A stretch of 61,244 nt of DNA from Candidatus Poribacteria bacterium. GTDB taxonomy: Bacteria; Poribacteria; DTPJ01; WJIO01. Made by a program: the position numbers and the translations under genes. Under the pieces are notes generated by a model, which had not been told where the DNA came from, searched no databases, and saw only the letters and a program-made list of their open reading frames with translations. The DNA lies in assembly GCA_014730235.1 (NCBI GenBank), contig WJIO01000421.1, forward strand, positions 1-61,244, written 5' to 3'. Below, in pieces: positions 2,475-54,137 of this stretch; the first letter of the stretch is position 1, and each line of letters opens with the position of its first letter.

Positions 2475-3251
2475 TTGAGAAAAACCATACTGATGGTTGG
2501 TCTGTTTATGTTTATTTTTATTAGTTGCCTTTATGCTTTTGATGATCCTGACCTTACTTTTTATTTCCCATTTGAGGCATTTGATGGTGATACAGCTCTG
2601 GATAAATCGGGCAAGGGTCACAATGGAACCATCAACGGCAATATAAAGATCGTTGATGGTGGCGGAAAAATAGGAAACGCCGCTGAATTTGAGCAGACCA
2701 GTTTTATTGATCTTGATGGTGCTAACTTTCCGCTGGAAGATATACCTGTGGAAGAGATGACTCTGATGGCCTGGATTAAACCGGAAAATACCGGTGGTGA
2801 TCATGCTATATTTAACGCCAGATCTGGTGATTCCACGTGGCTTATACATCCCGAAGCCAAAAGTTCCGGTCAATTTAGATGGCTGCTTCGTGCTGCTGGT
2901 GGTAACACTATCTTTGACATGAAGTTAGGTACGGTAGTCTGGGATGAATGGCAACATTATGCAGGGGTATATGACGGTGATAATGGTATTCTATACATAA
3001 ATGGTCAGAAAGAAGGCGAAATGGCTGGTGGTGCTGATATTTCCCCAGACTGGGCCCAGGGAGCACGTATTGGATATAATATTGATAATAACAGACCATT
3101 CACCGGTGTTATGGATGAGATTTCCCTGTGGAAACGAGCTTTGACACTGGATGAAATTACCGCAATTATGAATAATGGCCTTGAGGACTTCATGGCTGTT
3201 AATCCTGCTGAAAGTCTTTCTACCACATGGGGAAAGATTAAGAGCTTTTAG
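2475..3251 (+). CDS. Secreted LamG/concanavalin A-like domain protein with C-terminal TWGxIK tail
   Basis: AGGAGG RBS and TTG start, signal peptide, W.H.A.VYDG...LY.NG and F.G.MDE LamG motifs; ends AVNPAESLSTTWGKIKSF. Confidence 0.85.
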   Translation: MRKTILMVGLFMFIFISCLYAFDDPDLTFYFPFEAFDGDTALDKSGKGHNGTINGNIKIVDGGGKIGNAAEFEQTSFIDLDGANFPLEDIPVEEMTLMAWIKPENTGGDHAIFNARSGDSTWLIHPEAKSSGQFRWLLRAAGGNTIFDMKLGTVVWDEWQHYAGVYDGDNGILYINGQKEGEMAGGADISPDWAQGARIGYNIDNNRPFTGVMDEISLWKRALTLDEITAIMNNGLEDFMAVNPAESLSTTWGKIKSF

Positions 3252-3362
3252 TTTTATGTTACCGTATGAATAACTTAATTTATTGTGTATATCTTGAGCT
3301 TCAATAACCAGATTTTCTAATTTCAACTAAAATAATTAACATTTCTTGGAGGGAGAAAAATA

Positions 3363-4133
3363 ATGAAGTATACAATTTTAGCCTCAATTATTGCTCTGGT
3401 CATGGTTGCTAGTGTATCAGCCGATCCAGACCTGGTTCTCTATTTCTCATTTGACAATTTTGGTGACGTTGTACCTGATGAATCCGGCAAAGGTAATGAC
3501 GGAATGATTATGGGTTCAGTCGTTATGGATGCTGATGGCAACCGTGGTGGTGCAGCCAGTTTCGCGGATGAAGGTTATATTGACCTTGAGGGGGCAAATT
3601 TCCCTGCCTCTGATATTCCTGTTGAAGCTATGACTTTATGCGCTTGGGCCAAAGTTGAAGATACTGGTGGACACCACGCAATATTCAACGCCAGAGCCAA
3701 TGACGAAACATGGGTAATCCATCCTGAACTTCGTAGTGATGGAGGTTTCCGTTGGTTGCTTCGCGCCGCTGGTGGTAACACCATATTTGACATCCGCGCC
3801 GGTTCATGGACTCCGGGTGAATGGGTTCACTTCGGTGGAGTATACAGTTCCACTGATAGCATGGCCACCCTTTATGTAAATGGTGTGGAAGCTGGCACAG
3901 AAGATGCCCGTATACCTAACGCTCAGATTGTCAGTGATTGGGGTATGGGTGCAAGAGTAGGTAAAAATATTGATGATGCCAGACCATTCACCGGTCTTAT
4001 GGATGACCTGTGCATATACAAGCGGGCCCTTACCGTTGATGAGATCGCTGAAGTTATGGCCGGCGGTCCACCCAGCGCAGCTCCTGTTTCTCCGGAAAGC
4101 AGTCTTGCTGTTACCTGGGGCAGCATTAAATAA
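3363..4133 (+). CDS. Secreted LamG domain protein, tandem paralog of 2475-3251
   Basis: Shares IFNAR..D.TW.IHPE and FRWLLRAAGGNTIFD with the upstream gene; ends APVSPESSLAVTWGSIK. Confidence 0.85.
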   Translation: MKYTILASIIALVMVASVSADPDLVLYFSFDNFGDVVPDESGKGNDGMIMGSVVMDADGNRGGAASFADEGYIDLEGANFPASDIPVEAMTLCAWAKVEDTGGHHAIFNARANDETWVIHPELRSDGGFRWLLRAAGGNTIFDIRAGSWTPGEWVHFGGVYSSTDSMATLYVNGVEAGTEDARIPNAQIVSDWGMGARVGKNIDDARPFTGLMDDLCIYKRALTVDEIAEVMAGGPPSAAPVSPESSLAVTWGSIK

Positions 4134-4205: not shown

Positions 4206-4325
4206 TAACCGTTAAAAAATGAGATTCTTTCGGGTTCAGTGTGGTAAATATAAGAAACTTCTTTATGCTGTCATTCCTGCTTTCGCAGGAATGACAACCA
4301 GGTGATATTCATTTTTTAACGGTTA
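4206..4325. mobile_element. Small element with perfect 17-bp inverted ends enclosing a partial ISL3-like MITE (4223-4295)
   Basis: TAACCGTTAAAAAATGA (4206-4222) and its exact reverse complement (4309-4325); internal GTCATTCCTGC hairpin at 4270-4295. Confidence 0.6.
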
Positions 4326-7439: not shown

Positions 7440-9356
7440 TTATTTTGCTATGGTGATCTTTTTTGTGGCGGCAAATTCGCCAGCTTTCAAGGTATAGAAA
7501 TAAACGCCGCTTGCCACACGCTCTCCTGTCTCGTTTGTGCCATCCCAACGTGCAGCTTTGTCTTTTGTTACATAAACGCCGGGTTCCTGACTTCCTAGTT
7601 TTATGGTCTTTATCAACTGGCCGTTTACGCTGTGTATATCTATAGATACTTCACCAGCCTGGGGTAGCTGATATGGTATCCAAACTTCCGGGTTTGCTGG
7701 ATTTGGGTAGCTGTCCAGAGCAGCGAATTCCAGGGTTGTTTTGGTTTGCGCTGCCGGAGCTGCTTTTGAGCCATGGGCAGGAATCAGATCAGGTGGGTCT
7801 TCCATGAATATCCTGAAATAGGGCCTACCCAGCCATACTTCTGTTCCACCGTCGCTATCTGTACCAAATTCCAGGTCACCCTGTGTAAAGGGATTACCTG
7901 TAGTAATAAAAAGCCCTACAGGTGATGAAACCATAGTACGAGCGCCGTAATTCAGAGGATTGCCAAATCCTGTTTGTGTTACCTGATACCATTTCCATCC
8001 GTTCCAGCTTTTCCACAGGTCAAAACCACCCTGGTTAGCCCATATAGAGGGCATCAGGTAATTTTCTAAAAGCTCTATAATGACCGGGGGCAATTCACCT
8101 ATATCTATAAGCTGTTGTAAAGCCGCTATATCCATAGGTAGATATACACTGGTTGAGTCAAGAACAGCGACATAAAGCCAACCTTCATGCTCTTCCATAG
8201 CCCATACATAACCGGCAAACAGGTTACCAAAACCGCCCTCTTTACCGCTTATGGGCCATTTTCTTCCCTGGTCTGTATCTACCTTGTCGCCGCAAACTAC
8301 CTGCCAGTAGCCGTTAGGCCATATCCTGGTGACACCCGGATATGTTCCCGGCGCGGGATTACCTTCGCCCACATACATTTTTCCCTTGAACGGTTGTAGA
8401 GTCATACCTAAAGGAATTTGCTGTCCTCGACCTGCGCCTCCTGTTATAATAGGTTCCCATTGATAAGGACGAACGCCGGTGGTTTTAGCTCTCCAGACTT
8501 CATATCCGTTAAAGTTAAATGTTCCCACATAAAGGTAATTTCTCAAAACAGCCATATCAAAAATACCAACGTTATCAAGATTACCAAAAGCAACCTCGCT
8601 GGCAGGTCTGAAAGTAATTGTATCACCTGCTACAGTACCCTCAAAGATTACCGGCACACCGCCTTCTGCAGATGCTGTATATAATTTGCCGTTATGGGAA
8701 ACCAAAGCCCTGTAAGAGCTTATATATCCACCAGGATCAGGGATTACGTCCCAATCAAATATAATTTCCATAGGTGTAAAGGTAATTCCGTCAGTTGTCC
8801 TGAGGATTCGCGCCGCCAGCCCGATTTCTGTAAAACCCCCAAAACCCAGAGGTGAGTTACCAATATAAAGCGCACCATCATGAACCACCATATCCCGATA
8901 GCCATGATCCAATGGCAGAGCAAACACTTCGGGATTATCGGGTGGATTTATAAATGGTGGGCCAATTTCCAGGTCTATAGTTTCTGACTTATAGGCCAGA
9001 CGCCACTGTTTGGTTGATGGTGTATATTCCCATACTTCAGCTCGCAGGTCTAATGCCAGGAGTTCCTGGAAAGTCTCTGGTATGATAACCTTGTTGTTCC
9101 CTCCCGGAGACTGACCCTGGCTGATAGCTCCGGATAATTCAAATATGTGCCTGCAAGTTCCTACATAAAACTTACCATTGAACCATGCACTCGACCAACC
9201 ATAACTATTCCCCGAATCGCCAATGCCATTGCCGGCAATCCTTTTAAAATCGCTAAAATACAGGGATCGGGAATAAACTTGAGAATAAGTTATAACGGTA
9301 AATAATAAGGTTAATAATAAAATTTTTAAAATACTTTTTGAAGATACCTTTTTCAT
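7440..9356 (-). CDS. Secreted putative beta-propeller protein with C-terminal FlgD-Ig / T9SS type A-like sorting domain
   Basis: Signal peptide, repeated G.LYVGT-like blades, C-terminal SYPNPANPEVWIPYQL..WDGTNETGERVASGVYFYTL.AG.FAATKKITI.K. Confidence 0.75.
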   Translation of the reverse strand: MKKVSSKSILKILLLTLLFTVITYSQVYSRSLYFSDFKRIAGNGIGDSGNSYGWSSAWFNGKFYVGTCRHIFELSGAISQGQSPGGNNKVIIPETFQELLALDLRAEVWEYTPSTKQWRLAYKSETIDLEIGPPFINPPDNPEVFALPLDHGYRDMVVHDGALYIGNSPLGFGGFTEIGLAARILRTTDGITFTPMEIIFDWDVIPDPGGYISSYRALVSHNGKLYTASAEGGVPVIFEGTVAGDTITFRPASEVAFGNLDNVGIFDMAVLRNYLYVGTFNFNGYEVWRAKTTGVRPYQWEPIITGGAGRGQQIPLGMTLQPFKGKMYVGEGNPAPGTYPGVTRIWPNGYWQVVCGDKVDTDQGRKWPISGKEGGFGNLFAGYVWAMEEHEGWLYVAVLDSTSVYLPMDIAALQQLIDIGELPPVIIELLENYLMPSIWANQGGFDLWKSWNGWKWYQVTQTGFGNPLNYGARTMVSSPVGLFITTGNPFTQGDLEFGTDSDGGTEVWLGRPYFRIFMEDPPDLIPAHGSKAAPAAQTKTTLEFAALDSYPNPANPEVWIPYQLPQAGEVSIDIHSVNGQLIKTIKLGSQEPGVYVTKDKAARWDGTNETGERVASGVYFYTLKAGEFAATKKITIAK

Positions 9357-9575: not shown

Positions 9576-11468
9576 CTACTTTGCTATGGTAATTTTCTTT
9601 GTAGCGGCAAATTCGCCAGCTTTTAGAGTATAGAAGTAGATTCCGCTGGTTACTCGCTCTCCTGCCAGGTTTGTGCCGTCCCAGTAGGCAGCTTTGTCTT
9701 TAGTCATGTAAACGCCGGGTTCCTGGTTTCCCAACTGTATAGTCTTTATCAACTGGCCGTTTACACTGTGGATATCAATTGATACTTCAGCGTTATAGGG
9801 AAGCTGATAGGGTATCCAAACTTCCGGGTTTGCAGGATTAGGATAGCTTTCCAGAGCAGCGAATTCCAGAGTTGTTTTGGTTTGTGCTGTCGGAGCTGCT
9901 TTTGAACCATTGGTGGGAATCAGATCAGGCGGATTTTCCAGTAAAATTCTGAAATATGGTCTACCCAGCCACACTTCTGTTCCGCCTTCATAACCCATGT
10001 TATAGGCTGTATCACCCTGGGTAAAGGCGTTGGCGGTACACAGGAAAAGTCCTTCAGGTGATGATGTAAAGGAGCGAACACCATAGTTTAATGGATTGCC
10101 AAAACCTGTCTGGGAAATCTGGTACCACTTTCTGCCGTTCCAGCTTTTCCAAAGGTCAAAACCACCCTGGTTGGCTCTAATGGACGGTATGGTGTAATCT
10201 TGTAATAATGATCCAAGAATAGGTGGAAAGTCCGGTATATCTGAAAAGTCTATATAAGGTAGGAATGAACTGGTTACGTCATAAGTACCGGCATAAAGCC
10301 AGCCATCATGCTCTATCATGCGCCAGACATATCCTGTAAAAATGTTATCGAAGCCGCCCTTCATGCCGCTGATTGGCCATTTCCAGCCCACTCTATCTCC
10401 GCAGACTATCTGCCAGTAGCCATTGGGCCATATTCTTATTAAGCTGGGATAAGTTCCGGGAATTGGCATAGGCATACCTGTGCCTACATACATCTTGTTT
10501 TTGAATTCATACATACTCAGCACTGCACCGGCCATCTCTCCGCCGCCAGCGCCGTTTTCTATTATCCTTGTCCAGTTATATGGACGACCACCACTAACGT
10601 CAGACCTGTAGACTTCATAACCGTTGTAATTCATGGTACCGGCGTATATACAGCCTCTCATTTTTGCCAGGTCAAATATACCGGTGTTATCCGGGTTGCC
10701 AAAAGCGGGAAAACTTGCTGGTCTGAAAGTGGCCGTATCACCTTCTATAGTGACTTCAAAGACTATAGGTGTGCCACCTTCTGCTGGTGCTGTATAGAAT
10801 TTGCCGTTCAACGGAACCAGAGACCTGTAAGAGCTTATGAAACCTGCAGGTTTAGGCATTACATCCCAGTCAAAGACAATATTCATAGGTGTGAAGTTTA
10901 CGCCATCGGTGGTCTTGAGTATTCGGGGAGTAAGACCATACATGGATAACATTCCAAAACCTACAGGTACAGTCGTAATATAGAGCGCTCCATCATGAAC
11001 CAGCATTGCCCGATAACCATTATCCTTTGGGATCATGACTTGTGTTGGTGGAGTTGCAAAAGGAGGCCCAATAACAACAGGTTCTGGCGTAGTTTTAAAT
11101 GCAAGTCTCCACTGTTTTGTATTGGGTGTATACTCCCAAATTTCCCCGGCCAGGTCCAGTGATATTAGCTCTTCAAAAGATTCCGGCACATCTACGTTTG
11201 GAGCAGGCATTCCCATAAGGGACATCATTTCCAACACATAGCGTTCTGTCCCCACATAGAGCTTACCTTTAAACCATGCGCTGGACCATCCGTAGCTGTT
11301 GCCGGGATCGCCGAAACCGTTTTCGCTGATTTTTGTAAAATCACCTCTATACAGAGACCTGGCATAAGTTAGTTGGTTGGTTGACAATAAAAACAGAACA
11401 ACGAGGGCAAATGTCAACAACAATCCCATGCGATTTTTCCATATTTTTCGCAATTTCTTCTCCTCCAT
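9576..11468 (-). CDS. Tandem paralog: secreted beta-propeller protein with FlgD-Ig CTD
   Basis: Colinear with 7440-9356 (NSYGWSSAWF.GK.YVGT, GGFDLWKSWNG.KWYQ) with a near-identical C-terminal domain. Confidence 0.75.
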   Translation of the reverse strand: MEEKKLRKIWKNRMGLLLTFALVVLFLLSTNQLTYARSLYRGDFTKISENGFGDPGNSYGWSSAWFKGKLYVGTERYVLEMMSLMGMPAPNVDVPESFEELISLDLAGEIWEYTPNTKQWRLAFKTTPEPVVIGPPFATPPTQVMIPKDNGYRAMLVHDGALYITTVPVGFGMLSMYGLTPRILKTTDGVNFTPMNIVFDWDVMPKPAGFISSYRSLVPLNGKFYTAPAEGGTPIVFEVTIEGDTATFRPASFPAFGNPDNTGIFDLAKMRGCIYAGTMNYNGYEVYRSDVSGGRPYNWTRIIENGAGGGEMAGAVLSMYEFKNKMYVGTGMPMPIPGTYPSLIRIWPNGYWQIVCGDRVGWKWPISGMKGGFDNIFTGYVWRMIEHDGWLYAGTYDVTSSFLPYIDFSDIPDFPPILGSLLQDYTIPSIRANQGGFDLWKSWNGRKWYQISQTGFGNPLNYGVRSFTSSPEGLFLCTANAFTQGDTAYNMGYEGGTEVWLGRPYFRILLENPPDLIPTNGSKAAPTAQTKTTLEFAALESYPNPANPEVWIPYQLPYNAEVSIDIHSVNGQLIKTIQLGNQEPGVYMTKDKAAYWDGTNLAGERVTSGIYFYTLKAGEFAATKKITIAK

Positions 11469-12562: not shown

Positions 12563-13159
12563 TTATGTTTTTATGGGTTCTGAGAATTTTTTTACAGCCT
12601 CTGAACCCAGTTCAAACGCTTCTTTCAGGGCATCACTGTTTTCCAGTATGGCCCCTTTTTTATCAACTCTTCGATAGAAAAGTCCTCCTTCGTAGCTCAT
12701 ATCCAGAGCATCAAAGAAGTATTTTGCGGTTAATTCAACACCGGTAAAAAGATTGCTTCCTCTGGTCGCCCCTACGGCGATCAGATAGCCTTTACCGCTG
12801 TCGTAGTGTTTTCTTTCTTCTTTTGTCTTTTCCAGCATACGCTTTGCCCACATAGCCTGACATCGGTCAATCAGCAGTTTGACCTGTGCGCTCATATCGT
12901 AAAAGAATATGGGAGAAGCAAGAATTATTATATCCGCAGCCTGAATTTTCGGGTATATTTCCTGCATAGGGTCTTTGACAACACATTTACCGGTTTTATC
13001 ACATCCGCCGCATTCCCTGCATCCGGAGATATCCAGTTTTCGGGCATATACAGCTTCCACTTCAGCACCGGCGGCTTTTGCACCTTCTAAAGCCTTATCC
13101 AGAAGTATATCGGTATTTCCTCCTTTACGAGGACTTCCATAAATTCCTAATAATTTCAT
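12563..13159 (-). CDS. Iron-sulfur flavoprotein / NADPH-dependent FMN reductase family
   Basis: GSPRKGGNT FMN loop; compact CxxCxxCx5C motif (CRECGGCDKTGKC); ASPIFF. Confidence 0.85.
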   Translation of the reverse strand: MKLLGIYGSPRKGGNTDILLDKALEGAKAAGAEVEAVYARKLDISGCRECGGCDKTGKCVVKDPMQEIYPKIQAADIIILASPIFFYDMSAQVKLLIDRCQAMWAKRMLEKTKEERKHYDSGKGYLIAVGATRGSNLFTGVELTAKYFFDALDMSYEGGLFYRRVDKKGAILENSDALKEAFELGSEAVKKFSEPIKT

Positions 13160-13170
13160 AAGATTTTTTT

Positions 13171-13287
13171 GGTTCTTCCGGGTTCAGTGTGGTAATAATT
13201 GAAAATTCTCTTAGCTTGTCATTCCTGCTTTCGCAGGAAACAGCATAAAAAGTTTCTTATCTTTACCACACTAAACCCAGAAGAACC
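13171..13287. mobile_element. Intact ISL3-like MITE (117 bp)
   Basis: 25-bp terminal inverted repeats GGTTCTTCCGGGTTCAGTGTGGTAA (23 of 25 match), flanked by GATTTTTTT on both sides; internal GTCATTCCTGC remnant. Confidence 0.85.
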
Positions 13288-13339
13288 GATTTTTTTGCTA
13301 TAGGGCATATATGATATGCCCCATATAAATATTACTGTG

Positions 13340-18879: not shown

Positions 18880-18886
18880 AAAAATT

Positions 18887-19681: not shown

Positions 19682-19713
19682 AATTTCAATTTCCTCCTTT
19701 GTAAATTCATGAT

Positions 19714-39216: not shown

Positions 39217-40269
39217 ATGAGAAAGCTTTTTGTTCTCATAATTTCTATTTTGATGGCTTTAACAATACAGGCCTTTGCGTGTTTTAATCCCACCGATATT
39301 TTTGCTACAGAAGTAGTATTAAACAAACCGGGAATTAATTACGACCTGACATTAATAAAGGCGGCTGATAACGTTACATCGAAAGATGGAACTTATTCTT
39401 ACCGTTCCCATTATGACAGTCGGGTTGCTGTAATTCTGGAAGAGATCAATGAGGGGGAACCGGTAAATTTAAAGGGATTAAGCGTTAGAGTGCAGATACC
39501 CACCCGGGAAACCAGAAGAGTTAATATTGTAGCCAGTGTTGAATTTGAATTGGAAGGTTTAATTGTGGATAACCTGGATAAAGATTTGCTAACTTCCCTG
39601 GGCTACAGTATTGATGTTGATGATATGGAAATTTTCAGACCAGAGGAACCGGGTGATATTGAAGATCCTATATCTCCAATTAATAACGCCGTTTTTCTGG
39701 AAAAAGATAATATTTTAATATCTATGATGGATATTGTAGTTTCTGATAGAAATAAAGTTATAGCGAGGTTCGAAGTCATAGATCAGCGGGAAATTGGCGA
39801 ACAACAGGTCAATGAATTTGGGCATATACTTAAATCCTTTGGTGTTGATGAATCGGTTATAGGTCAGATGTCTGAGAGTATAGAAAAATATGAAAATCAG
39901 GATCTAGCCGAAGCCGTTGATTTGGATAAAGAGAGTTTTGATTTCAAATCAGCCCTTAGAACCGAATTGGATTGGCTTAACATCAATGAAATCATAAAGG
40001 GTATTGAAAGAGAAGATATTACAGCTATTGCTGATATTGCAGAAGCGGGTTATGCTGGATGGAACTCAAGAATAGTTTACGACAGCGGTAAATGGATACC
40101 CTATGTCCAGACAGATAATCCCACTGTATTCCGGTCGCAGGACTGCGGGGGTTTTGACCCTGAAATTCTACCCTGGAATAATGAATCAATTATATTGCCA
40201 GCACCTAGCAGCGTCAGTCCAGAAGCTAAAGCTGTTATGACATGGAGCAGTATTAAGAACGGTATGTAA
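39217..40269 (+). CDS. Secreted hypothetical protein with C-terminal TWSSIK tail
   Basis: GGAGG RBS, signal peptide ending AFA-C, acidic body, ends SSVSPEAKAVMTWSSIKNGM. Confidence 0.75.
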   Translation: MRKLFVLIISILMALTIQAFACFNPTDIFATEVVLNKPGINYDLTLIKAADNVTSKDGTYSYRSHYDSRVAVILEEINEGEPVNLKGLSVRVQIPTRETRRVNIVASVEFELEGLIVDNLDKDLLTSLGYSIDVDDMEIFRPEEPGDIEDPISPINNAVFLEKDNILISMMDIVVSDRNKVIARFEVIDQREIGEQQVNEFGHILKSFGVDESVIGQMSESIEKYENQDLAEAVDLDKESFDFKSALRTELDWLNINEIIKGIEREDITAIADIAEAGYAGWNSRIVYDSGKWIPYVQTDNPTVFRSQDCGGFDPEILPWNNESIILPAPSSVSPEAKAVMTWSSIKNGM

Positions 40270-44647: not shown

Positions 44648-46567
44648 ATGGAGCAAAGCAAATTTAATTTAGGTCAGGATAAAAGATCCGTCGGTGTTAC
44701 CTGGAGAGCATTGCTGATAGGGATAATCCTTATTCCCATAAACGTATACTGGATTATGGATTCAGGTGGACAGGGCTATCCCACAACTGTATCCCTCTAT
44801 TTCAACGTTATCTTTTGTGTATTTTTATTAATAATTCTGAACCATATTACTAGTCGTATCTTTCCCAAATTAAGCTTCAGTCAGGGAGAATTACTGGCAG
44901 TTTACGTTATGCTTTCAGTATCCTCATCCATAGCTGGACATGATATGATGAGAGTCTTATCATCAATGCCAGCCCATCCGTTCTGGTATGCAACTCCCGA
45001 AAACGAATGGCAGGAGCTTTTTCATAGATATATACCCACATGGCTTTCTGTTTCAGATAAGAATATGCTGAACGACTACTTTAAGGGTGATTCCAGTTTT
45101 TACAGTATGCAAAACCTTAAATTCTGGCTTAAACCAGTGTTGTGGTGGAGTTCCTTTGTCTTTTGCCTACTTTTCGTTATGCTTTGTGTAAATACTATAG
45201 TCCGTCGTCAATGGACAGAACAGGAAAAGCTCAGTTATCCAATTATACAGTTGCCTTTGGAAATGACAACCAGCGGTGGTATAAAGGGTTTGATGCTGAA
45301 TAAGCTTATGTGGATCGGTTTTGGTTTGGCGGCTGTTGTAGATATAATAAATGGTCTTAATTTTCTGTATCCCTCCGTTCCCAGCATTGGCGGCAAATTA
45401 TACGACCTGCGACCTTTTTTTACTACAAAACCCTGGGATGCTATCGGTTGGACTCCTGTTGCTGTGTTTCCCTTTGCCATTGGCATTGCATTTTTCATAC
45501 CCCTTGATCTTTCCTTTTCATGCTGGTTCTTCTATTTATTCTGGAAGGTTCAGCGTATTCTCGGTTCAATTCTGGGACTCAGAAGTCTGCCGCGCTTTCC
45601 ATATATTGAAGAGCAGGCTTTTGGTGCATATATGGGATTATTTGTCATAGCCATATGGGCTACCAGAAAACATCTGATGGAAGTCATTAAGAAATTCTCC
45701 GGAATAAAATCCAGGGTTGATGATACCAAAGAACCGCTTCCCTACAGGTGGGCAGTTCTTGGTTTAATAGTCGCTTTTGCTTATCTGGTTGGATTTTGCT
45801 ATGTGGCCGGCATGTCCATATGGGTAGCAGTTTTATTTTTTGTAATATATTACGCAATTTCAACGGCAATATGCCGCATGAGGGCGGAATTAGGATCACC
45901 TGTCCACGATCTGCATTTCATTGGCCCTGATCAAACACTTCCCAAAATATTTGGCACTCGCCATCTGGGCGCAGCCAATCTTACCATGTTTGCATATCTT
46001 TATTTCTTCAACAGAGCATACAGAGGACACCCTATGCCGCATCAATTGGAGGGATTCAAGCTGGCCGAAAGGACAGGCATGAATTCCCGGCGGCTTCTTA
46101 TTGCAATGGTTATATCTGTTCCACTGGCGGCTCTGGCTTCGTTCTGGGCGCACCTGGATATATCCTATCGGGTTGGCGCGCCGGCCTGGTTTGCATGGGA
46201 ACCTTTTAACCGTCTCCAGAGCTTTTTATCCGCACCACAACCGCCGGATTATGGGGCAATTGTGGCATCCAACGTAGGATTTATTACCACGATTTTGTTG
46301 ATGTTTATGCGGGTTAAATTTTTCTGGTGGCCCTTTCATCCGGCCGGTTACGCTGTATCTAGTAGCTGGTCAATGAATGTGTTCTGGTTTTCCATAATGT
46401 TAAGCTTCTTTGCTAAGTATATCATAATGAAATCAGGTGGGATCAAGACACATAGAAAAGCTATTCCCTTTTTTCTTGGGCTTATACTGGGTGAATTTAT
46501 TGTGGGAAGCGTTTGGAGCATAATTGGTGTATCCATGCACAGACCCATGTATAGATTTCTATATTAA
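44648..46567 (+). CDS. DUF6785/DUF6784-type membrane protein, paralog 3
   Basis: Same motif series (WYATPENEWQ, QWTEQEKLSYP, RMRAELG, HPMPHQLEGFK, PFHPAGY). Confidence 0.75.
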   Translation: MEQSKFNLGQDKRSVGVTWRALLIGIILIPINVYWIMDSGGQGYPTTVSLYFNVIFCVFLLIILNHITSRIFPKLSFSQGELLAVYVMLSVSSSIAGHDMMRVLSSMPAHPFWYATPENEWQELFHRYIPTWLSVSDKNMLNDYFKGDSSFYSMQNLKFWLKPVLWWSSFVFCLLFVMLCVNTIVRRQWTEQEKLSYPIIQLPLEMTTSGGIKGLMLNKLMWIGFGLAAVVDIINGLNFLYPSVPSIGGKLYDLRPFFTTKPWDAIGWTPVAVFPFAIGIAFFIPLDLSFSCWFFYLFWKVQRILGSILGLRSLPRFPYIEEQAFGAYMGLFVIAIWATRKHLMEVIKKFSGIKSRVDDTKEPLPYRWAVLGLIVAFAYLVGFCYVAGMSIWVAVLFFVIYYAISTAICRMRAELGSPVHDLHFIGPDQTLPKIFGTRHLGAANLTMFAYLYFFNRAYRGHPMPHQLEGFKLAERTGMNSRRLLIAMVISVPLAALASFWAHLDISYRVGAPAWFAWEPFNRLQSFLSAPQPPDYGAIVASNVGFITTILLMFMRVKFFWWPFHPAGYAVSSSWSMNVFWFSIMLSFFAKYIIMKSGGIKTHRKAIPFFLGLILGEFIVGSVWSIIGVSMHRPMYRFLY

Positions 46568-46660
46568 TCATGCCTGAAAATATGTAAACCCTTTTTTTCA
46601 TTATGCGTTTTAAGAAGTCGTAAGCAAAGATAATTCCCTAACTTGATCAGGAGTTGTATA

Positions 46661-49600
46661 TTGCATAGCATATCCAAAATCCGGTGCGACAAGAAATTAA
46701 AATTATTTACCCCACCGTTATTTTTGTTGTATATAATCATTTATGGATTAACGGTTTTTTGTCCATCCTTTGCCAAAGAAGCTAAAACCGAATTATCAGC
46801 AAAAAAACATGATAAATTTAATATACATCTTTTGCAAAAAGACGAAACTCTATCCCATGTAGCTCTAAGATATTACAAGGATATTTCAATGGTAGGATTG
46901 CTGGCAAGGTATAATGATATAAACGATGTGCGGCGTATACCCGAAGGCAAAGAAATTAAAGTTCCCTATGAAATTTCATATACAATCAAACCCAATGATT
47001 CATTATCGGAGATAGCCCAGAAACTTCTGGGAAGCTGGCAGAAATACAGCATAATTGCTGAATATAATAAGCTGGAAGATCCCGGATTTGTGATCGCTGG
47101 TAGAGTTTTGAGGATACCGCTGCTTAAGCCTGATACTGAACCCCCAGAACCAGAAGCACCCCCTGCTGAAGTTGTGGAAGAAGACAAGCCAGAAGAACCT
47201 GAAAGAAAGAAAGTAGAAAAAGAATATCCAGTCGTTACCGAATCAGAAAAAGAAGAGAAAACCAAAGAGATAATAGAACCTACAAAAGAAACAGAAGAAG
47301 ATGTTTCCACAGAACCGGATGTAGATATAGAAAAAGAAACTAAACCGGAAACGGTGGTTGAGCCGCAGGAACCGGTTGAGGTAGAAACTGAAACCAAAGT
47401 TATTCCGGAAATATCCGAAGAACCCCCATCCCCTGCCTCAACGGAAGAATTAAAACAGGAAAAACCCAAAGACCATACCGCACCTATAGGCCCTATGCCT
47501 CAATCCAAATTCAGACTCGTCAGGGTAAAGCCAGATGATAAGGAAGAAGAAATCATACAGGAAGAATTTGGTGTGGAGCAGGAATGGCCCCTGGCCTCCC
47601 CCTGGGCCAGAAAAAAACTACAACCATCAGAAGAGGAAATAACCGAACCGGACAGGCTGTCGGCTGTATTGGATGCACTGAAAACCTGGGATCGTCCTAT
47701 TGAGGAATTAGAGGATAGCAAAAAAGCCCGATTTGACGAAAAGGGCATAAACCTGCCTATGGATTCACTGCTTCAGGTAACAGGATATAAATCCATCACA
47801 ATCCAGTATAATAAAACCCACTATTTTGGAAAATCCGATATAAACCGATACAGCGGATATTATTCCGGTGGCTATGGTTCAGGCTTTTATGATTATGATT
47901 ACGGTTATGATTCCTATGGTTACGGTAGTAGCTACAATAGCTACAGCAGTGGTTACAGCAGTTATGGAAGCGGCTACAGTTCCTCCAGGTATGGTTATGG
48001 CTATGGTCAACGAGAAGGCCCAAATATTGAACAGGAATTTGACATTCATATTCATGGACGAGTTGGTAAGCATACTCATGTGGATGTTGATTACAATGAT
48101 ACCGGCAGATCTCAATATGGCGGAATGGGTCAGAAGGAGCAGAAAATTTCTGTGTGGTATGAGGGCGATCCGGAGGATATAATCCAAAGAGCTGCATTCG
48201 GTGACATTCGCCTTGAATTACCCAACAGTCGCTTTCTTAATATGGGCAGAACCCTCTTTGGCGCACAAATGGTGGCAAAATTGGGTGATCTTAAATTAAC
48301 TGCCTTTGGAACCAGAACCAAAGGTATCAAAGGAACCTGGACATCCAAAGGTCAGTCCAGAAGGGCCGGAGGTGGAACCGGTACCAGGATCATGGATATT
48401 AATTATATTAAAGAAAGATATTATGCCATAAATGTGGATGAAGACGGTTTTATTAATGATTCGTATTTACCAATAGAAACAGGCAGCGAGCAGATTTATA
48501 TAGACGATGGTATCGGTACAAATAACGATTCAGGTATATCAACAGCCCAGGGATATTTCGACTATCAATACCCCGGTGATGATTACAGCATTGATTACTC
48601 TACCGGACAGATAGAATTTTTAAAGAATATATCCACAGGTTTTAAAATTGTGGTAGCTTACAGATATCGGGGTGGTGATGGTGGTTCTGTGGGTAATCCG
48701 GATTCTGTATTTGTGGATGATGATGATGATGGTATAACGGATGGATTAGACGATCCTGATGATCCTGTGGGTTATGTAGTTATAAAAGATTCAGCGGCTC
48801 ATGGTTCGGAACTGCGGAATGTATACAGTCTTGGAAACAGGAATATCGGCAGACGCAACTTTGAATTAAGCATCTGGCGTGAGGGTGCAACGGATTCTTT
48901 TGAAACAGGTGATGGTAAGGTAGCATATATACGTATATTCGGCTTGGATTCGGACAACGACGGTCTGGTTGATCCTGAACTTATAGACTTTGAAAGGGGA
49001 ATACTTACTTTCCCAAATCCCAAACCCTTTATCATTGATGATCCTGCAAGTCCTTATTATCAATACAGGGATGAATTAAATAACGAGGCAATATACTCAG
49101 AAAACCCCAACTATTCCGATCAGAAATACATTATCCAGGCGGATTATTCATACCAGACACCGAGTTTTTATCTTGGAAGATTAAATATAATACCTGAAAG
49201 TGAAGAAGTAAGGGTAAACGGTCAAAGATTGAATAGAAATACAGATTATATGATGATCTATGAGGTGGGCTCAGTAGAGATATTCAGGGAACTGGATGAA
49301 TATGACGAAATTACAATTGATTATGAATATATGCCTTTTGGCGGTCAATACCAGCAGACAATAGCAGGTATATGGGCTGAATATTCGTGGAAACCGGGCA
49401 AGAAAAAGGAAGAAAAGAAAAAAACTCACACAGATATGTATAGGGAAGACGGGGCCAGTCCCTTCTCCCAGGATACAGACAGCAGTGATTCCGACTACAG
49501 TCGTTATGGAAGCTCAAGCTCAAGTTTCGGTAACTATGGGTCTTTTGGCGGCAGCTATAATAGCTATGGAAGCAGTTATGGAAGTAATTACGGTAGTTAT

Positions 49601-52600
49601 GGTGGTTATGATAGCTTTAGTTCATATAGAGGCAGAAGAGGAAGTTTTGGATCAAGCCGGAGTTATGGTTCATCCCGCAGCAGTTTTTATACACCCCGAA
49701 CTGGTGAAGGCTTGAACCTCTCTATGGGATATGTATATAATACAGGAGAAAGAACTTCCGCAATTCCCGACGTTAATTCCGCTCCAAGTCGTCTCCAGGC
49801 TTTGGTATTTGGTGGAAACTGGGGTGATAAATTCAATATGGCCAGGGTTTTTGGACTTCTTCCCTTTGTATCAATAAAAGGCGAAGTGCCTTTTACGGTT
49901 TACCTGGATGGTGAAGCTGCCTATAGCCGTAATAATCCCAACAGCGTTGGCTATGCCATGATTGACAGTATGGAAGGTGCAAAAGAGAGCGCAAAAATGC
50001 CCACCTATAAGTTCTCCTGGAAAACTGCAAGCGTGCCAATGGATACGGAATCGGATAACGATATTTCAATTGATAACAGGGCGATTTTTCATATAGAAGA
50101 ATATGACGAAGATGCCAGCTACGGCAACTATATGAAAAACCGGGAAACCTCCGCTATTGAAATTAATCCCTTATCCAGAGCAACCCAGCAGCATCTTGTT
50201 ATGGAGATCGGGTATGATTTAAACGATGCTGCATCATGGGGAGCTTTAGCCTATCCTGTTTCTAACACCGGTGCAGATTTTAGCGAATATGAATTCCTTG
50301 AAATATGGATGAAGGTTGACGGTGATGAAAATGTAAATCTGCATCTGGATTTTGGTGTTATAAGTGAAGATACGGATGATGATTTTCGTTTGGATAGCGA
50401 AGACCTGCCCAGGGATATGCTCGACAGCAACGGTGATCATAAAATAGATATACTCGATCTGGATAAAGAAGACCTGCCGGAAGAGCATAAATATAAAGGG
50501 AACGGAAGCCTTGACCTGCGTGAAGATAACGGATGGGTCTACAACGATTTTAGTGGAAATGTAATTGACACTATTGGCAGGGAAAACTCGGTTCTGGATT
50601 CTGAAGACCTGGATGGAGACGTGGTATTGGATACAAACAATTCATATTTCGGTTTTACCATACCATTAAATAATATACCCAATGACTGGATCCGCAAAAA
50701 AACCAGCAAGACAGGATGGATATTCCTGAGTATACCTCTGGAAGAGGCTCTTCCAAAAGGACGTTCACCAAGCTGGGCAGTTATTAAGCATATGCGATTA
50801 TGGTTAGAGAAAAATATTCCCGGTTCTATAAATGGTAAATTCCAATGGTATTCAATAACTGTCGCTGGTAACAGATGGGAGAAAGGCCTTGTTGTTGAAA
50901 ATGAAACAGGCAAGCTTTCAGAAGATCTCACAAATGAAATTCTGGTTGGTACAAAAAACAACCACGAATTTGAAGATTACCTGGAAGAATACAGAAAGAT
51001 AGAGGATAACGAAGATTTTGATGTCCTGCATCCATATGTGGAAAGCGCATTTGGTCTGGAAAGCGACCAGAAAGAGCAATCATTAACTCTGAATTATGAT
51101 TTACAACCGGACACAACTGGTTACACCATGCGGGAATTATCCGGGGTTCGTCGTGGCGAAGGTCAGGATTTTTCAAAACATAGAGAGATGCGTATATGGT
51201 TGCATGGTGATGGTAGCGGTTTACCTTTCTTGATCAGGATGGGAAGCAATACCGATGATTTCGGAGCAGGAAGTCCTATAACAACAAAAGATGATGACAA
51301 TAACGATCCATATAACAATTATAACTATACTTATTCGTCATATTCATCAAGGTATGGAGCAAAAGGTTATTATGAGTATATCCTTCCCCTTGATTTTAAA
51401 GGATGGAAACTAATAAAAATATCATTTGCGGATAAAGATGATGATGGACATCCGGATGAATTAACGCCTATAAACGATCCTGCCATTAACAATATCCACG
51501 AAATACTTGTGGGTATTAAAAACGAATATCAGTATCCTGTAACAGGTGAAATATGGGTTAATGAAATACATTTAACAGATCCATTTGTCAAATCCGGCTG
51601 GGCAAGACGTTTTAATTTATCCGCAGATTTAGCCAATATTTTTGATATCAGAGCTGGTTATGCAAAGCAAGACAAGAATTTTGAAAATTCCGCAGGTCAA
51701 ACAGGCAGATCAAGCATGCGTTCTTATGGCTACAGCACCAGTAGTTATGATTATAATGTTGACACCCAATTTAAACTAATCTCATGGCTGCCTATGAGTT
51801 TTGGTATAAGTCACCGGGAATCGGAAAGCAGCAGTCTTTACGGAATAATCAGTTCCTATCAAAGCGGTCTAACAAAAACCGATAACAAGACTTTCAGCAT
51901 TAGCCTTGATAAAAGCCCTATCCCTCGGTTGTCTTTTTCATACGACAAGCAGAGACAGTGGAATGAAGTCAGAGGGGTGGAATTGAGTGACCTTTATTCA
52001 TCGGATGTGGGATATTCTCTTGGCAGTGTTTTGACAATTAACCTTGATTATTCCCATGAAGTATTGACAACGGAACAGGATTCATCGGAAGATGACACCA
52101 CTCCAACAAGTTCTTATTACTATTACGGCAGAGATACCGATACAATAGTTGACCGAGGCGGCATATCCCTTAGAATATCCCCTATAAAAAGCTTTAGCCT
52201 TGATCCATCTTATGAAGTCAGAAGGGAAATGGAGCGGGAGAAAGACGAAGATGACATAGAAGGTGGATTTCTTATTTCATCCAGAGACCAAAGAATATCC
52301 CTTAGACCGACCCTGAGAAAATTCTGGGGGGTTAAACCATCAATAAACGGCAGATATGGTTTCAGTGAAGACTGGTTTGGCGGCGAAAAGGACGTATCCC
52401 TCAACACAGATCTCGGTTTTGGGTTAAACTTTACCTTTAAGGACTGGTTTAAACCCAAGAAAGGGAAAGATGAACGAGGACGGGATAGGTTAACGGAATT
52501 GGGTAAAGATATTGACCTGTTGACTGAAGAAGACCTTCGCTCCCTGAGTGAGGAAGATATACAGGAACTCCTGGATGAAAAAACTCAGCAGGAACGGGGT

Positions 52601-53536
52601 AACTGGATCGAAAAGGAAAAGGATGAAATAAAGGAAAAGCTGCGTCAGCGAAAACTCGAGGAAGAAATGGATATAGAGCCTGATGCTGAAGGTGGTAATT
52701 TTGCCTTCCGGGCCTTAAAAAGAAGTGTATCAACTTTTTCCATTAATACTGATTTAAGATACAGTATCAATGACTACCTTCGCCGTTTAGATCCCACAAT
52801 GGGATTTTCGGATATAATGAAGCTGGAAGATGAATCCGAATTCCGAACAAGGTCTACCAAAACCAGAAGGTTTACCATCAGAGCAAATATGGATCCCATG
52901 ACGTGGGCTTCTCTGGGAACCAATATGTCACTAACCAACAGGTTTACTAAATCATCAGGAACAGCATCCGATTCTGATTCATCAACCGTTGGCGGCGATA
53001 TTAAAATATTTAGCTCTCAGACATCCTTTATGCTTAAATACAATATGACCACTCAGGATTCCAGCAACCAGAGCGGTAAAATATCCGACAGCATATCCCA
53101 TAATCCATCAGTTACTGTGCGAAAAAGCTGGTCTTCAGGAATCGGCTCATCTCTGGGATTTAGAATTACCTTCCGAGATTATGAACGTGGTGGAATAGAG
53201 ACAAGGTCAAGAATTTATGCACCAAACTTTAATATAGATTACGATCTGCATGTAAAGGGTGATGTTGATCTACCATTTGTACGCAAAATAAGCCTCGATC
53301 ATAATCTGGATATGAGCAATACAGTTTCAGTAATGGTACGTCGGGAAAAGCTGGGAATAAACCGGGATGAGAAATCAGAGCAGTATGGAACTTCTCTTGA
53401 TGTTAGTTATAATCTACGACAAACACTCAGAGCAAGTATGAGATTCTCTTTGGACTATAACCATGATAGGGTGGAAAAAGATGCAGATTATATATCTGTT
53501 TCAGGGTCCCTCATGCTAAGGGGTGAGTTTAGATAA
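46661..53536 (+). CDS. Giant SprA-like outer-membrane protein (T9SS translocon-like) with two N-terminal LysM domains
   Basis: AGGAG then TTG start at 46661; signal-like N-terminus; two LysM repeats; SprA-like segments (R.LFGAQ, NIIPESEEV.VNG..L.RN.DY, DFSEYEFLEIWM, ISEDTDDD..LDSED, EIWVNEIHL..P..GWA); amphipathic beta-strand C-terminus. Confidence 0.75.
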   Translation: MHSISKIRCDKKLKLFTPPLFLLYIIIYGLTVFCPSFAKEAKTELSAKKHDKFNIHLLQKDETLSHVALRYYKDISMVGLLARYNDINDVRRIPEGKEIKVPYEISYTIKPNDSLSEIAQKLLGSWQKYSIIAEYNKLEDPGFVIAGRVLRIPLLKPDTEPPEPEAPPAEVVEEDKPEEPERKKVEKEYPVVTESEKEEKTKEIIEPTKETEEDVSTEPDVDIEKETKPETVVEPQEPVEVETETKVIPEISEEPPSPASTEELKQEKPKDHTAPIGPMPQSKFRLVRVKPDDKEEEIIQEEFGVEQEWPLASPWARKKLQPSEEEITEPDRLSAVLDALKTWDRPIEELEDSKKARFDEKGINLPMDSLLQVTGYKSITIQYNKTHYFGKSDINRYSGYYSGGYGSGFYDYDYGYDSYGYGSSYNSYSSGYSSYGSGYSSSRYGYGYGQREGPNIEQEFDIHIHGRVGKHTHVDVDYNDTGRSQYGGMGQKEQKISVWYEGDPEDIIQRAAFGDIRLELPNSRFLNMGRTLFGAQMVAKLGDLKLTAFGTRTKGIKGTWTSKGQSRRAGGGTGTRIMDINYIKERYYAINVDEDGFINDSYLPIETGSEQIYIDDGIGTNNDSGISTAQGYFDYQYPGDDYSIDYSTGQIEFLKNISTGFKIVVAYRYRGGDGGSVGNPDSVFVDDDDDGITDGLDDPDDPVGYVVIKDSAAHGSELRNVYSLGNRNIGRRNFELSIWREGATDSFETGDGKVAYIRIFGLDSDNDGLVDPELIDFERGILTFPNPKPFIIDDPASPYYQYRDELNNEAIYSENPNYSDQKYIIQADYSYQTPSFYLGRLNIIPESEEVRVNGQRLNRNTDYMMIYEVGSVEIFRELDEYDEITIDYEYMPFGGQYQQTIAGIWAEYSWKPGKKKEEKKKTHTDMYREDGASPFSQDTDSSDSDYSRYGSSSSSFGNYGSFGGSYNSYGSSYGSNYGSYGGYDSFSSYRGRRGSFGSSRSYGSSRSSFYTPRTGEGLNLSMGYVYNTGERTSAIPDVNSAPSRLQALVFGGNWGDKFNMARVFGLLPFVSIKGEVPFTVYLDGEAAYSRNNPNSVGYAMIDSMEGAKESAKMPTYKFSWKTASVPMDTESDNDISIDNRAIFHIEEYDEDASYGNYMKNRETSAIEINPLSRATQQHLVMEIGYDLNDAASWGALAYPVSNTGADFSEYEFLEIWMKVDGDENVNLHLDFGVISEDTDDDFRLDSEDLPRDMLDSNGDHKIDILDLDKEDLPEEHKYKGNGSLDLREDNGWVYNDFSGNVIDTIGRENSVLDSEDLDGDVVLDTNNSYFGFTIPLNNIPNDWIRKKTSKTGWIFLSIPLEEALPKGRSPSWAVIKHMRLWLEKNIPGSINGKFQWYSITVAGNRWEKGLVVENETGKLSEDLTNEILVGTKNNHEFEDYLEEYRKIEDNEDFDVLHPYVESAFGLESDQKEQSLTLNYDLQPDTTGYTMRELSGVRRGEGQDFSKHREMRIWLHGDGSGLPFLIRMGSNTDDFGAGSPITTKDDDNNDPYNNYNYTYSSYSSRYGAKGYYEYILPLDFKGWKLIKISFADKDDDGHPDELTPINDPAINNIHEILVGIKNEYQYPVTGEIWVNEIHLTDPFVKSGWARRFNLSADLANIFDIRAGYAKQDKNFENSAGQTGRSSMRSYGYSTSSYDYNVDTQFKLISWLPMSFGISHRESESSSLYGIISSYQSGLTKTDNKTFSISLDKSPIPRLSFSYDKQRQWNEVRGVELSDLYSSDVGYSLGSVLTINLDYSHEVLTTEQDSSEDDTTPTSSYYYYGRDTDTIVDRGGISLRISPIKSFSLDPSYEVRREMEREKDEDDIEGGFLISSRDQRISLRPTLRKFWGVKPSINGRYGFSEDWFGGEKDVSLNTDLGFGLNFTFKDWFKPKKGKDERGRDRLTELGKDIDLLTEEDLRSLSEEDIQELLDEKTQQERGNWIEKEKDEIKEKLRQRKLEEEMDIEPDAEGGNFAFRALKRSVSTFSINTDLRYSINDYLRRLDPTMGFSDIMKLEDESEFRTRSTKTRRFTIRANMDPMTWASLGTNMSLTNRFTKSSGTASDSDSSTVGGDIKIFSSQTSFMLKYNMTTQDSSNQSGKISDSISHNPSVTVRKSWSSGIGSSLGFRITFRDYERGGIETRSRIYAPNFNIDYDLHVKGDVDLPFVRKISLDHNLDMSNTVSVMVRREKLGINRDEKSEQYGTSLDVSYNLRQTLRASMRFSLDYNHDRVEKDADYISVSGSLMLRGEFR

Positions 53537-53537
53537 T

Positions 53538-54137
53538 TTACCTTATTGCACTCCAGACTGTAAAAGTATATTTTGATCTTTCAATTAAAAAAGCTGGAGT
53601 ATTTGGCCTCCCGGGGGTAATAACAGAAAAGACGACAAAATCCATCTGATTGTTATCGGTATCAAGCCCGTCAGGTCGTCTTCCGATGCTGTATCCTGAA
53701 ATATCCAGAGTCGGTTCACCTTCCCCTGCAAAATTATTATCGACAAAATCGCCATATCCCACAGCGTCGGCAATTTCATTTCCCATATACAGCAATATAT
53801 TGTCAGGCCCGTTCTGAAAATTCACTTTAGGATTTACTACATCCGCATTTTCCACAGAATTGTCCTGAGCTACAACAAAGTAACCATCATGGGGTATTTC
53901 ATATCCTGCCAGTTCTATTCGGTTATATTCCTTTCCGCTGCCTCCATTAATCCCCAGGAGATAATATTCATCCAGGTTCATTCCCGGTTGTCCGGTCAAT
54001 TCAACAAAACAACCGGTATCAACTCCCGGAGAATCATAGAGGACTTCATTTATTACCAACCGGGCGAATACATAGTCAGAATAAAATAGGAAAAATAAAA
54101 TAAAAACAATGATTAAATTTTTTCGCCCCGCACACAT
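53538..54137 (-). CDS. Secreted lamin-tail-domain protein with TVWSAIR tail
   Basis: LVINEVLYDSPGVD..FVEL, FQNGPDN..L, SIGR.PDG.DTD.N..DF, TPG.PN. Confidence 0.75.
   Translation of the reverse strand: MCAGRKNLIIVFILFFLFYSDYVFARLVINEVLYDSPGVDTGCFVELTGQPGMNLDEYYLLGINGGSGKEYNRIELAGYEIPHDGYFVVAQDNSVENADVVNPKVNFQNGPDNILLYMGNEIADAVGYGDFVDNNFAGEGEPTLDISGYSIGRRPDGLDTDNNQMDFVVFSVITPGRPNTPAFLIERSKYTFTVWSAIR

Follow-up and report, generated by a model that had tools for sequence, protein, structure and literature searches.

The 61,244-nucleotide contig WJIO01000421.1 of a Candidatus Poribacteria bacterium, which was analyzed over its full length and is called the window below, encodes a set of proteins ending in the same short peptide, referred to here as the tail. 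Judging from sequence comparisons, the tail is a genuine, modular, and lineage-specific C-terminal tag of exported proteins in Poribacteria-type diderms. The full motif, [AS]-V-x-P-x-G-K-L-x-T-T-W-G-x-[IL]-K, is 16 residues in length and is followed by 0-7 residues. On balance, I favor the view that the disordered tail is bound after export by one dedicated envelope component, which would keep the cargo cell-associated and would replace a C-terminal membrane anchor.

In a first-pass annotation made from the letters of the window, it was claimed that seven unrelated secreted proteins share the tail. All seven C-termini were found at the stop positions given there. The word "unrelated" was too strong, since three of the seven (t1, t2, and t3) have a Laminin_G_3 body, but the bodies are otherwise diverse. 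The first of the three, t1 (nt 2475-3251, +), has a signal peptide and ends in AVNPAESLSTTWGKIKSF (nt 3195-3248). Its Pfam Laminin_G_3 match (94 bits) stops at residue 228 of 258, and its tail scores 33.2 bits with a tail profile that had t1 in its training set. Its tandem paralog t2 (nt 3363-4133, +) has a signal peptide and the tail PVSPESSLAVTWGSIK (nt 4083-4130), with no residue after the final Lys. The third, t3 (nt 18887-19747, -), also has a signal peptide, probably starts at an internal MKGFLV…, and ends in AVTPKDKLGIAWARIKMLN (nt 18890-18946). In t4 (nt 28246-29100, -), a signal peptide and a DUF4960-like N-terminal region (a partial Pfam match of 41 bits) precede the tail PVEPAGKLSTVWGDVKQ (nt 28249-28299), and in t6 (nt 39217-40269, +), a signal peptide and a Heavy_Cys_CGP (PF27854) body precede the tail SVSPEAKAVMTWSSIKNGM (nt 40210-40266). 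The tails of these five proteins score 26-33 bits, all of them being part of the training alignment. The remaining two are less regular. The t5 reading frame (nt 30439-30717, -) is a stop-to-stop remnant of 92 residues, that is, the last 92 codons of a propeller-like tail gene without a start codon, N-terminus, or signal peptide, placed 16 nt downstream of a DUF6785 gene in a different reading frame. Its tail, …GVPPITTVWGGIKMSY (nt 30442-30498), scores 11.8 bits with a profile built without t5, as compared with 4.3 bits for the best noise. Finally, t7 (nt 53538-54137, -) has a signal peptide, a lamin-tail-domain (LTD) body (28.6 bits, under the Pfam cutoff), and a divergent tail, LIERSKYTFTVWSAIR (nt 53541-53588). 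It has the core pattern W[GSA]x[IV][KR] at its exact C-terminus, the common part is only the terminal TVWSAIR, and the tail profile missed it in the window scan; its membership is doubtful. In summary, five of the seven are strong members, t5 is a probable member on a gene remnant, and t7 is doubtful. The claim that the intact carriers have signal peptides held for the window, where six of the six intact proteins have signal-peptide-like N-termini.

The tail is confined to protein ends. The window has 48 likely proteins with 18,471 residues in total, in which the core pattern occurs eight times. Seven of these matches lie in the last eight residues of a protein, within three residues of the stop codon, the eighth being internal to a SprA-like protein. 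From the residue frequencies, only 0.011 C-terminal matches would be expected as compared with the seven seen (a Poisson probability of about 3e-18), and when each protein was shuffled 2000 times, the mean was 0.007 C-terminal matches and the maximum two. The conserved tail residues are encoded by differing synonymous codons between the copies, the nucleotide identity among the tails of the window is 31-65% over 48 nt, and no DNA repeat family of the window covers the tails. Thus, because the synonymous codons differ and the tails lie outside the repeat families, the conservation is at the peptide level, and the selection acts on the protein.

Is the tail common outside the window? A profile, one of the checks that the first-pass annotation had proposed, was built from 24 tails and applied to every segment of the six reading frames in 1.03 Mb of related and control DNA. 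It gave 155 matches of at least 15 bits, of which 151 are within six residues of a stop and the remainder within 20 residues, while internal matches were not found (0/155). Over about 1 Mb of related DNA, the tail is thus restricted to the extreme C-terminus. Archaeal and other control loci (about 300 kb), fetched for another reason, scored 5.9 bits at best. A metagenome scan with the pattern [GSE][KS]L[TS]TTWGxI, in which a stop codon was not required, yielded 80 loci from many different samples, judging by the contig accession prefixes. A profile search of 1.84 billion representative proteins gave 13 matches at E ≤ 1e-3; three are internal-repeat proteins, and the other ten, t6 included, end within three residues of the C-terminus. 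A word-indexed protein search with 40-residue C-termini gave ten candidates and three matches. As for the density, six loci centered on DUF6785 transporter genes, which were not selected for tails, have four tail genes in 132 kb, or about one per 33 kb, and the window has seven copies in 61 kb. By extrapolation, there may be roughly a hundred or more carriers per 4-6 Mb genome. The taxonomic range was inferred from a handful of organism names. Every named close homolog of the tail-bearing Heavy_Cys_CGP proteins and of the DUF6785 transporters (up to 83% identical to named homologs) is annotated either as Candidatus Poribacteria, which is a candidate phylum, or as plain "bacterium". The first-pass annotation, which had mentioned similar tails on Poribacteria proteins, was right in this respect.

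The strongest functional clue comes from the Heavy_Cys_CGP family, in which the tail stands where homologs have a C-terminal membrane anchor. The t6 protein matches the NCBIfam model TIGR04292, "CGP-CTERM-anchored Cys-rich protein", with 142.5 bits (cutoff 200). It is not a full member, since it is below the cutoff and its C-terminus is the tail instead of the CGP motif and a membrane helix. Of 54 database homologs of t6, the closest 45 or so end in the tail, two of them being named Candidatus Poribacteria, whereas in the distant homologs, which come from Chloroflexota, Thermococcus, and others, a hydrophobic helix and basic residues form the end. In a scan of the GTDB species representatives, t6 alone gave no match, and an alignment query found homologs. 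Two bacterial homologs (from Poribacteria SpSt-970 and one unclassified metagenome-assembled genome) end in the tail, and the maximum 17-residue hydropathy of their last 40 residues is 0.07-0.39; the tail has no membrane helix, as the first-pass annotation had noticed. In contrast, all 19 of the 19 complete archaeal or Dehalococcoidia homologs have a membrane-helix-like segment (17-mer hydropathy of 2.1-3.5) followed by Arg/Lys. The anchor segment and the tail share one place, after a conserved CGGF…LPxG motif. Such an exchange is a classic signature of a sorting or anchoring tag. To this extent, the earlier proposal of a peptide export or anchoring tag gained support from one family, although the tag may serve export, anchoring, or something else. 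The Heavy_Cys_CGP body is mainly archaeal, being found in Methanophagales/ANME-1, Geoglobus, and Thermococcus, and the Poribacteria version looks like an inter-domain acquisition with the membrane anchor exchanged for the tail. In the window, the t6 gene divergently adjoins a ZnuABC-type transporter. ZnuABC was considered as a conserved partner of Heavy_Cys_CGP and rejected, the arrangement not being kept in 30 related loci.

In total, 145 distinct tails were collected, 80 of which do not match the locus-fetching pattern. Since the metagenome query was made from a narrowed alignment and biases the seed tails towards KL[TS]TTWG, the consensus was recomputed from the 80 non-seed tails. It reads [AS]-V-x-P-x-G-K-L-[ATS]-T-T-W-G-x-[IL]-K with fixed spacing and with 80-100% conservation at each of the positions V, K, L, W, G, and K. 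Such tight conservation of the columns favors a specific protein reader. The extension after the motif ranges from 0 to 7 residues, three being the commonest length (94/166), and is variable in sequence, its end weakly favoring Tyr, Arg, or Gln. The linker before the tail is short, flexible, and rich in Gly, Ala, Pro, and Glu and is not conserved. In line with the first-pass annotation, the tail lies beyond the folded domains as a C-terminal module of its own. Pfam LamG matches reach the end of the profile 25-30 residues ahead of the stop, and the conserved element begins no more than 25-30 residues behind the body domain. Structure prediction was performed for one carrier, t6. In the AlphaFold model (22 homologs), the body has a predicted local distance difference test (pLDDT) score of 80-96, while residues 331-347 are below 50 and are not packed against the body. 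The mean hydrophobicity of the tail is about 0. The hydrophobic moment at 160 degrees, which corresponds to beta periodicity, is 0.42 versus 0.22 for shuffled tails, whereas that at 100 degrees, which corresponds to a helix, is 0.24 versus 0.22, showing no helical excess.

The bodies that carry the tail are diverse. By BLAST, 26 families were distinguished among 132 carriers of usable length (114 at 90% non-redundancy). Most bodies are lectin-like beta-sandwiches of about 250 residues, and the largest family is LamG with 71 members. The others include 3keto-disac_hyd/DUF1080, F5/8 type C, NPCBM, CBM4_9, CBM9, GH43_C2-like, and esterase bodies, Kelch propellers, He_PIG/cadherin, Heavy_Cys_CGP, DUF4960-like, and LTD bodies, and several without a Pfam match. 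The median length is about 260 residues, and a typical carrier is composed of a signal peptide, one carbohydrate-binding beta-sandwich, and the tail. A far larger carrier of 1526 residues is encoded in a metagenomic locus (L082, 282-4865) and has a lipoprotein-like signal, He_PIG/Big_9/cadherin repeats, a LamG domain, and the tail. It is a giant homolog of a protein of more than 2500 residues in another locus (L053, 5762-13270, -), which has cadherin/He_PIG-like repeats and terminal dockerin-like repeats (DVNKDGQVDIVDL…DVDGDGTVDISDL). Related adhesin-like bodies, one of which ends in LamG and the tail, bear different C-terminal docking modules.

The carriers are exported proteins. A home-made heuristic for signal peptides, namely an uncharged 11-residue window with at least nine hydrophobic residues near a candidate start, was applied alike to all open reading frames (ORFs) of the tail-bearing loci. 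A signal-peptide-like start was found in 115 of 136 tail ORFs (85%) as compared with 114 of 382 neighboring ORFs (30%), which gives an odds ratio of 12.9 (p = 3e-29). Co-occurrence with signal peptides had been named beforehand as a check, and the tail does not occur equally on cytoplasmic proteins. The heuristic-negative tail ORFs are mostly frameshifted fragments, and one of them has a twin-arginine (Tat) signal. This tail protein (L092, 1796-2866, +) starts with the Tat signal TRREFLRDMSLTGVGVALTPALL…AHA (TRREFL…AHA), and therefore the tag is not limited to Sec substrates. A metagenomic protein of 156 amino acids (P0064) has a purine-nucleoside-phosphorylase-like N-terminal half and a perfect tail, …AVDPKSKLTTTWGSIKNAR, and is probably a chimeric or frameshifted gene call. 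Apart from P0064, no cytoplasmic-type carrier was found among the tail ORFs of the examined loci and the database matches. In one more carrier (L099, 205-2067, +), an extracytoplasmic function (ECF) sigma factor (regions 2 and 4) is joined through one membrane helix to a Kelch propeller and the terminal tail, which places the tail on the periplasmic end of an inner-membrane protein. In another locus (L118, 17348-20527, -), a single ORF fuses an ECF sigma factor (regions 2 and 4) to an extracytoplasmic BNR/sortilin beta-propeller. The two fusions look like a one-component trans-membrane sigma-factor architecture.

The tail was compared with databases and known tags. No model of Pfam-A or NCBIfam 20.0 matches it, either with full proteins or with isolated peptides at E = 10, and newer precomputed Pfam annotations of the tail proteins show the body domains only. 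A PDB profile search gave only spurious matches to designed repeat proteins, and no description of the tail motif was found in a literature search. The sorting domains of the type IX secretion system (T9SS), namely TIGR04183/PF18962 of type A and CHU_C of type B, resemble the tail in many respects: they lie at the extreme C-terminus of Sec-exported cargo in diderms, they are borne by many unrelated cargoes per genome, lectin-like and adhesin-like ones included, they occur in genomes with SprA-like and PorV-like genes, and they end with a hydrophobic residue and Lys. However, the T9SS signal is a folded Ig-like domain of 70-100 residues, whereas the tail is a disordered peptide of 16-20 residues without profile similarity to it. 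The first-pass annotation had rightly called the tail far shorter than a T9SS Ig-fold domain (16 plus 0-7 residues versus 70-100). Neither the full tail proteins nor the tail peptides match Por_Secre_tail, TIGR04183, or CHU_C at E = 10, while the true sorting domains of the window do match. The tail and the T9SS domain coexist in the same loci on different sets of proteins. It was also considered whether the tail is a truncated T9SS domain. This was rejected, since the local domains end in strands (…T[RK]K[ILM]xIxK) whose resemblance to the tail is only superficial.

Sortase-type signals, such as LPXTG, PEP-CTERM/exosortase, GlyGly-CTERM/rhombosortase, and PGF-/CGP-CTERM/archaeosortase, are also short conserved C-terminal motifs found on signal-peptide proteins with diverse bodies and in many copies per genome, and the Heavy_Cys_CGP tail sits exactly where its homologs have a CGP-CTERM or membrane anchor. 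However, in these signals the motif must be followed by a membrane helix and a basic cluster, whereas the motif of the tail is followed by 0-7 polar residues and the hydrophobicity of the tail is about 0. The tripartite architecture is absent from the tail proteins, as seen in the hydropathy values of 0.07-0.39 versus 2.1-3.5 for the anchored homologs, and no NCBIfam sorting-signal model matches them. The C-terminal anchors of E. coli PBP5 and PBP6 are, like the tail, short elements without a spanning segment on Sec-exported soluble proteins with a supposed membrane association. They are degenerate amphipathic alpha-helices that lie on lipid, whereas the tail is tightly conserved, has beta periodicity, and shows no amphipathic helix of the PBP5 type (a 100-degree moment of 0.24 versus 0.22 for shuffles). 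The tight conservation together with beta rather than alpha periodicity therefore points to a protein reader.

Systems of strand docking, namely the TonB box, the beta-signal of outer membrane proteins (BamA-BamD), the donor strands of type V and chaperone-usher systems, and dockerin-cohesin pairs, share with the tail a short disordered terminal element and a supposed strand addition or docking. In contrast to the tail, the beta-signal has the pattern G-x-x-hydrophobic-x-hydrophobic with an aromatic end and forms the last barrel strand, the TonB box and the pilus donor strands are tied to specific protein families, and dockerins are Ca-binding modules of roughly 60-70 residues. The tail is not a beta-signal, as its bodies are soluble sandwiches, propellers, and enzymes, its terminal residue is variable, and position +4 is Lys. 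None of these docking systems shares the tail motif, and none is found as an independent tag on dozens of soluble proteins with unrelated bodies. Nor does the tail behave as a cargo peptide of encapsulins or microcompartments, which is borne by cytoplasmic proteins, since 85% of the carriers are signal-peptide-like and one has a Tat signal. In summary, the logic of the tail is closest to that of the T9SS and sortase-type tags, while physically it is closest to peptide or strand docking elements. It is apparently an uncatalogued C-terminal tag for sorting or anchoring, new both in architecture and in sequence.

How might the tail work? A tagged protein would exit the cytoplasm via Sec or, in at least one case, via Tat. 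The exported tail might then be captured as an amphipathic beta-strand or hairpin by a putative single envelope protein. The docking would hold the cargo on the cell envelope. This cargo is mostly made up of small carbohydrate-binding beta-sandwiches, but some enzymes and propellers and one giant adhesin-like protein also belong to it. The tag would take over the role of the C-terminal membrane helix of the archaeal and monoderm homologs. I infer docking and retention, a single reader, and a beta conformation of the bound tail from the observations described above. The inner-membrane carrier of L099 fits periplasmic docking better than a pure outer-membrane export signal. Several points weigh against this scheme. 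The anchor swap was seen in one body family only (Heavy_Cys_CGP). Since the tails are related to one another, their hydrophobic moments have inflated z-scores, and the qualitative result alone was used. The L099 protein is already anchored by its membrane helix and the L082 protein has a lipoprotein-like signal, and therefore retention cannot be the sole role of the tag. In addition, the carbohydrate-binding modules and the giant adhesin-like carrier would be best suited to a place outside the outer membrane, and therefore translocation would be needed besides docking.

It is possible, but rather improbable, that the tail is a minimal T9SS-type signal read in the periplasm by a SprA-like translocon, a PorV-like shuttle, or a PorU-like sortase, carried through the outer membrane, and perhaps cleaved and surface-attached. 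With the same low probability, it would, next to the Ig-fold domain, form a third class of T9SS signal that has only the size of a peptide. The window encodes a SprA/Sov-like protein of 2297 residues with an N-terminal LysM (nt 46643-53536, +), which matches Pfam LysM and SprA_N and has 182 bits with TIGR04189 (cutoff 200). It is plausibly a homolog of the T9SS translocon. The first-pass annotation had named it as a possible reader of the tail, but none of the observations made here connects the two. The window also has two tandem paralogs (nt 7440-9356 and nt 9576-11468, both -) with FlgD_ig/Por_Secre_tail sorting domains of type A, which bears out the coexistence with FlgD-Ig domains claimed in the first-pass annotation. 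The paralogs are of about 630 residues without a recognizable body domain, and their sorting domains are near identical (the first 300 nt of the ORF spans being 83% identical). Thus, T9SS-type domain substrates for the SprA-like protein are already present in the window. In locus L032, a PorV/PorQ family gene (2072-3118, -; 190 bits) lies two genes from a tail gene. In a single-cell study of 2014, Poribacteria were found to have T9SS sorting domains, while the structural genes were not found (PMC3909097). From the matches described here, Poribacteria-type genomes seem to encode structural parts of the T9SS, which would modify that report.

Besides these genes, T9SS is the sole known reader of C-terminal signals on Sec-exported proteins of diderms. 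Surface display would suit the carbohydrate-binding modules and the 1526-residue adhesin-like carrier, and it would also predict a membrane anchor in monoderms versus a tail in diderms. Both tags finish with a hydrophobic residue followed by Lys. On the other hand, the tail has no match to the known T9SS domains even at E = 10, and 16-20 residues are too short for an Ig-like sandwich. No body family was found that bears either tag interchangeably. There is one Tat carrier (L092) and one inner-membrane-anchored carrier (L099), and the arrangement of SprA next to t7 was not repeated in the related loci examined.

Another explanation is covalent attachment or processing, with the tail as the substrate motif. 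The invariant Lys, for example, might be linked to peptidoglycan or a glycolipid after trimming of the extension, by analogy with Braun lipoprotein or PorU. The Lys (K/R) at position +4 is invariant, the extension is short and variable (mode 3), and the tail is always near the C-terminus. Moreover, the motif is about as tightly conserved as signals read by enzymes, such as LPXTG. However, no enzyme candidate was found, and the extension varies between 0 and 7 residues in length. I consider covalent attachment unlikely.

It is more unlikely still that the tail tethers periplasmic lectin-like proteins to inner-membrane transporters of the DUF6785/DUF6784 type for a binding-protein-dependent uptake of glycans. 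The window has three paralogs of these uncharacterized polytopic DUF6785+DUF6784 membrane proteins (nt 30733-32655, -; nt 32764-34683, -; nt 44648-46567, +). The AlphaFold model (pLDDT 89) was matched by Foldseek to 7wsr, barley Yellow Stripe 1 of the OPT family of transporters (E = 2e-9, TM-score 0.64-0.69). More than 3800 homologs of DUF6785 are in the database, and DUF6785 loci contain PhyH, GFO_IDH_MocA/oxidoreductase, lyase, sulfatase, and BNR genes. The family is thus probably a nutrient importer. DUF6785 is the most recurrent neighbor family of the tail genes, with nine non-redundant copies in six loci, often in one operon with a tail gene (L034, L071, L096, and L115). In L115, two LamG-tail genes and a BNR gene come directly after the DUF6785 gene. 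The anchor swap and the L099 carrier would agree with docking at the inner membrane, and the OPT/YSL fold would suit uptake. However, the adjacency of DUF6785 and tail genes is not significant by within-locus permutation (p = 0.15), tail genes are within 10 kb in just two of the six DUF6785-centered loci, and most tail genes of the window are not beside a DUF6785 gene. The two families are in any case abundant in these genomes. In addition, OPT transporters are not known to use binding proteins. DUF6785 was also considered as the reader or partner of the tail in its own right and was demoted to a weak lead, given the same adjacency statistics and an OPT/YSL fold instead of that of a sortase-like enzyme.

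There is little to recommend the idea that a PDZ protease such as Prc/CtpA or DegP reads the tail as a signal for proteolysis or quality control in the periplasm, or that the tail is a motif for self-association. The tail is a flexible, exposed C-terminal peptide, and its beta-strand character would suit the binding groove of a PDZ domain. However, PDZ domains read the last residues and the free carboxylate, whereas the terminal 0-7 residues of the tail vary in length and sequence. It is implausible that around a hundred constitutive lectin-like proteins per genome would be marked for degradation, and the swap with a membrane anchor indicates localization. Finally, an artefact, be it a DNA repeat or mobile element running over the gene ends, the last strand of each domain, or chance, is essentially refuted: although palindromic intergenic repeats abound in the window and in part lie near tail genes, the tails differ in synonymous codons, have only 31-65% nucleotide identity, belong to no repeat family, number seven where 0.01 would be expected by chance, lie outside the Pfam matches, are unpacked in the AlphaFold model, and are common to 26 body families.

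The palindromic intergenic repeats of the window are about 90-150 nt in length and are not specific to tail genes. They were found at nt 743-834, 2339-2455, 4206-4297, 13154-13300, and 18699-18892, and the same family also occurs at nt 22401-22698, 26546-26664, 29201-29494, 32713-32753, and 38917-39097. The outer arms are GGTTCTTCCGGGTTTAGTGTGGTAA and TTACCACACTAAACCCGGAAGAACC, and the inner hairpin is TGTCATTCCTGC-TTTC-GCAGGAATGACA. The copies at nt 22401-22698 and nt 29201-29494 have 94-95% identity. An Rfam scan of the window, the palindromic repeats included, gave no match. The repeats look like a REP-like (repetitive extragenic palindromic) or MITE-like (miniature inverted-repeat transposable) element.

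Docking of the exported tail by one envelope component thus remains the view that I favor. A bolder and more tentative proposal is that the tail, as a peptide-sized beta-strand tag borne by perhaps a hundred or more exported proteins in each genome, marks the cargo of a previously unrecognized envelope-sorting or display pathway of Poribacteria, whose dedicated reader, a receptor or an enzyme, would be neither a sortase-type membrane protease nor the canonical T9SS. If true, the tail would represent a new class of bacterial protein-sorting signal. LPXTG, PEP-CTERM, GlyGly-CTERM, and the T9SS domains each led to a dedicated machinery and are used daily for the prediction of surface proteins. 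Poribacteria are a dominant, uncultured phylum of sponge symbionts and environmental bacteria whose surface biology is little known. The tail profile would define the likely envelope-associated glycan-binding proteome of this phylum and would provide a handle for phylogenetic profiling of the reader.

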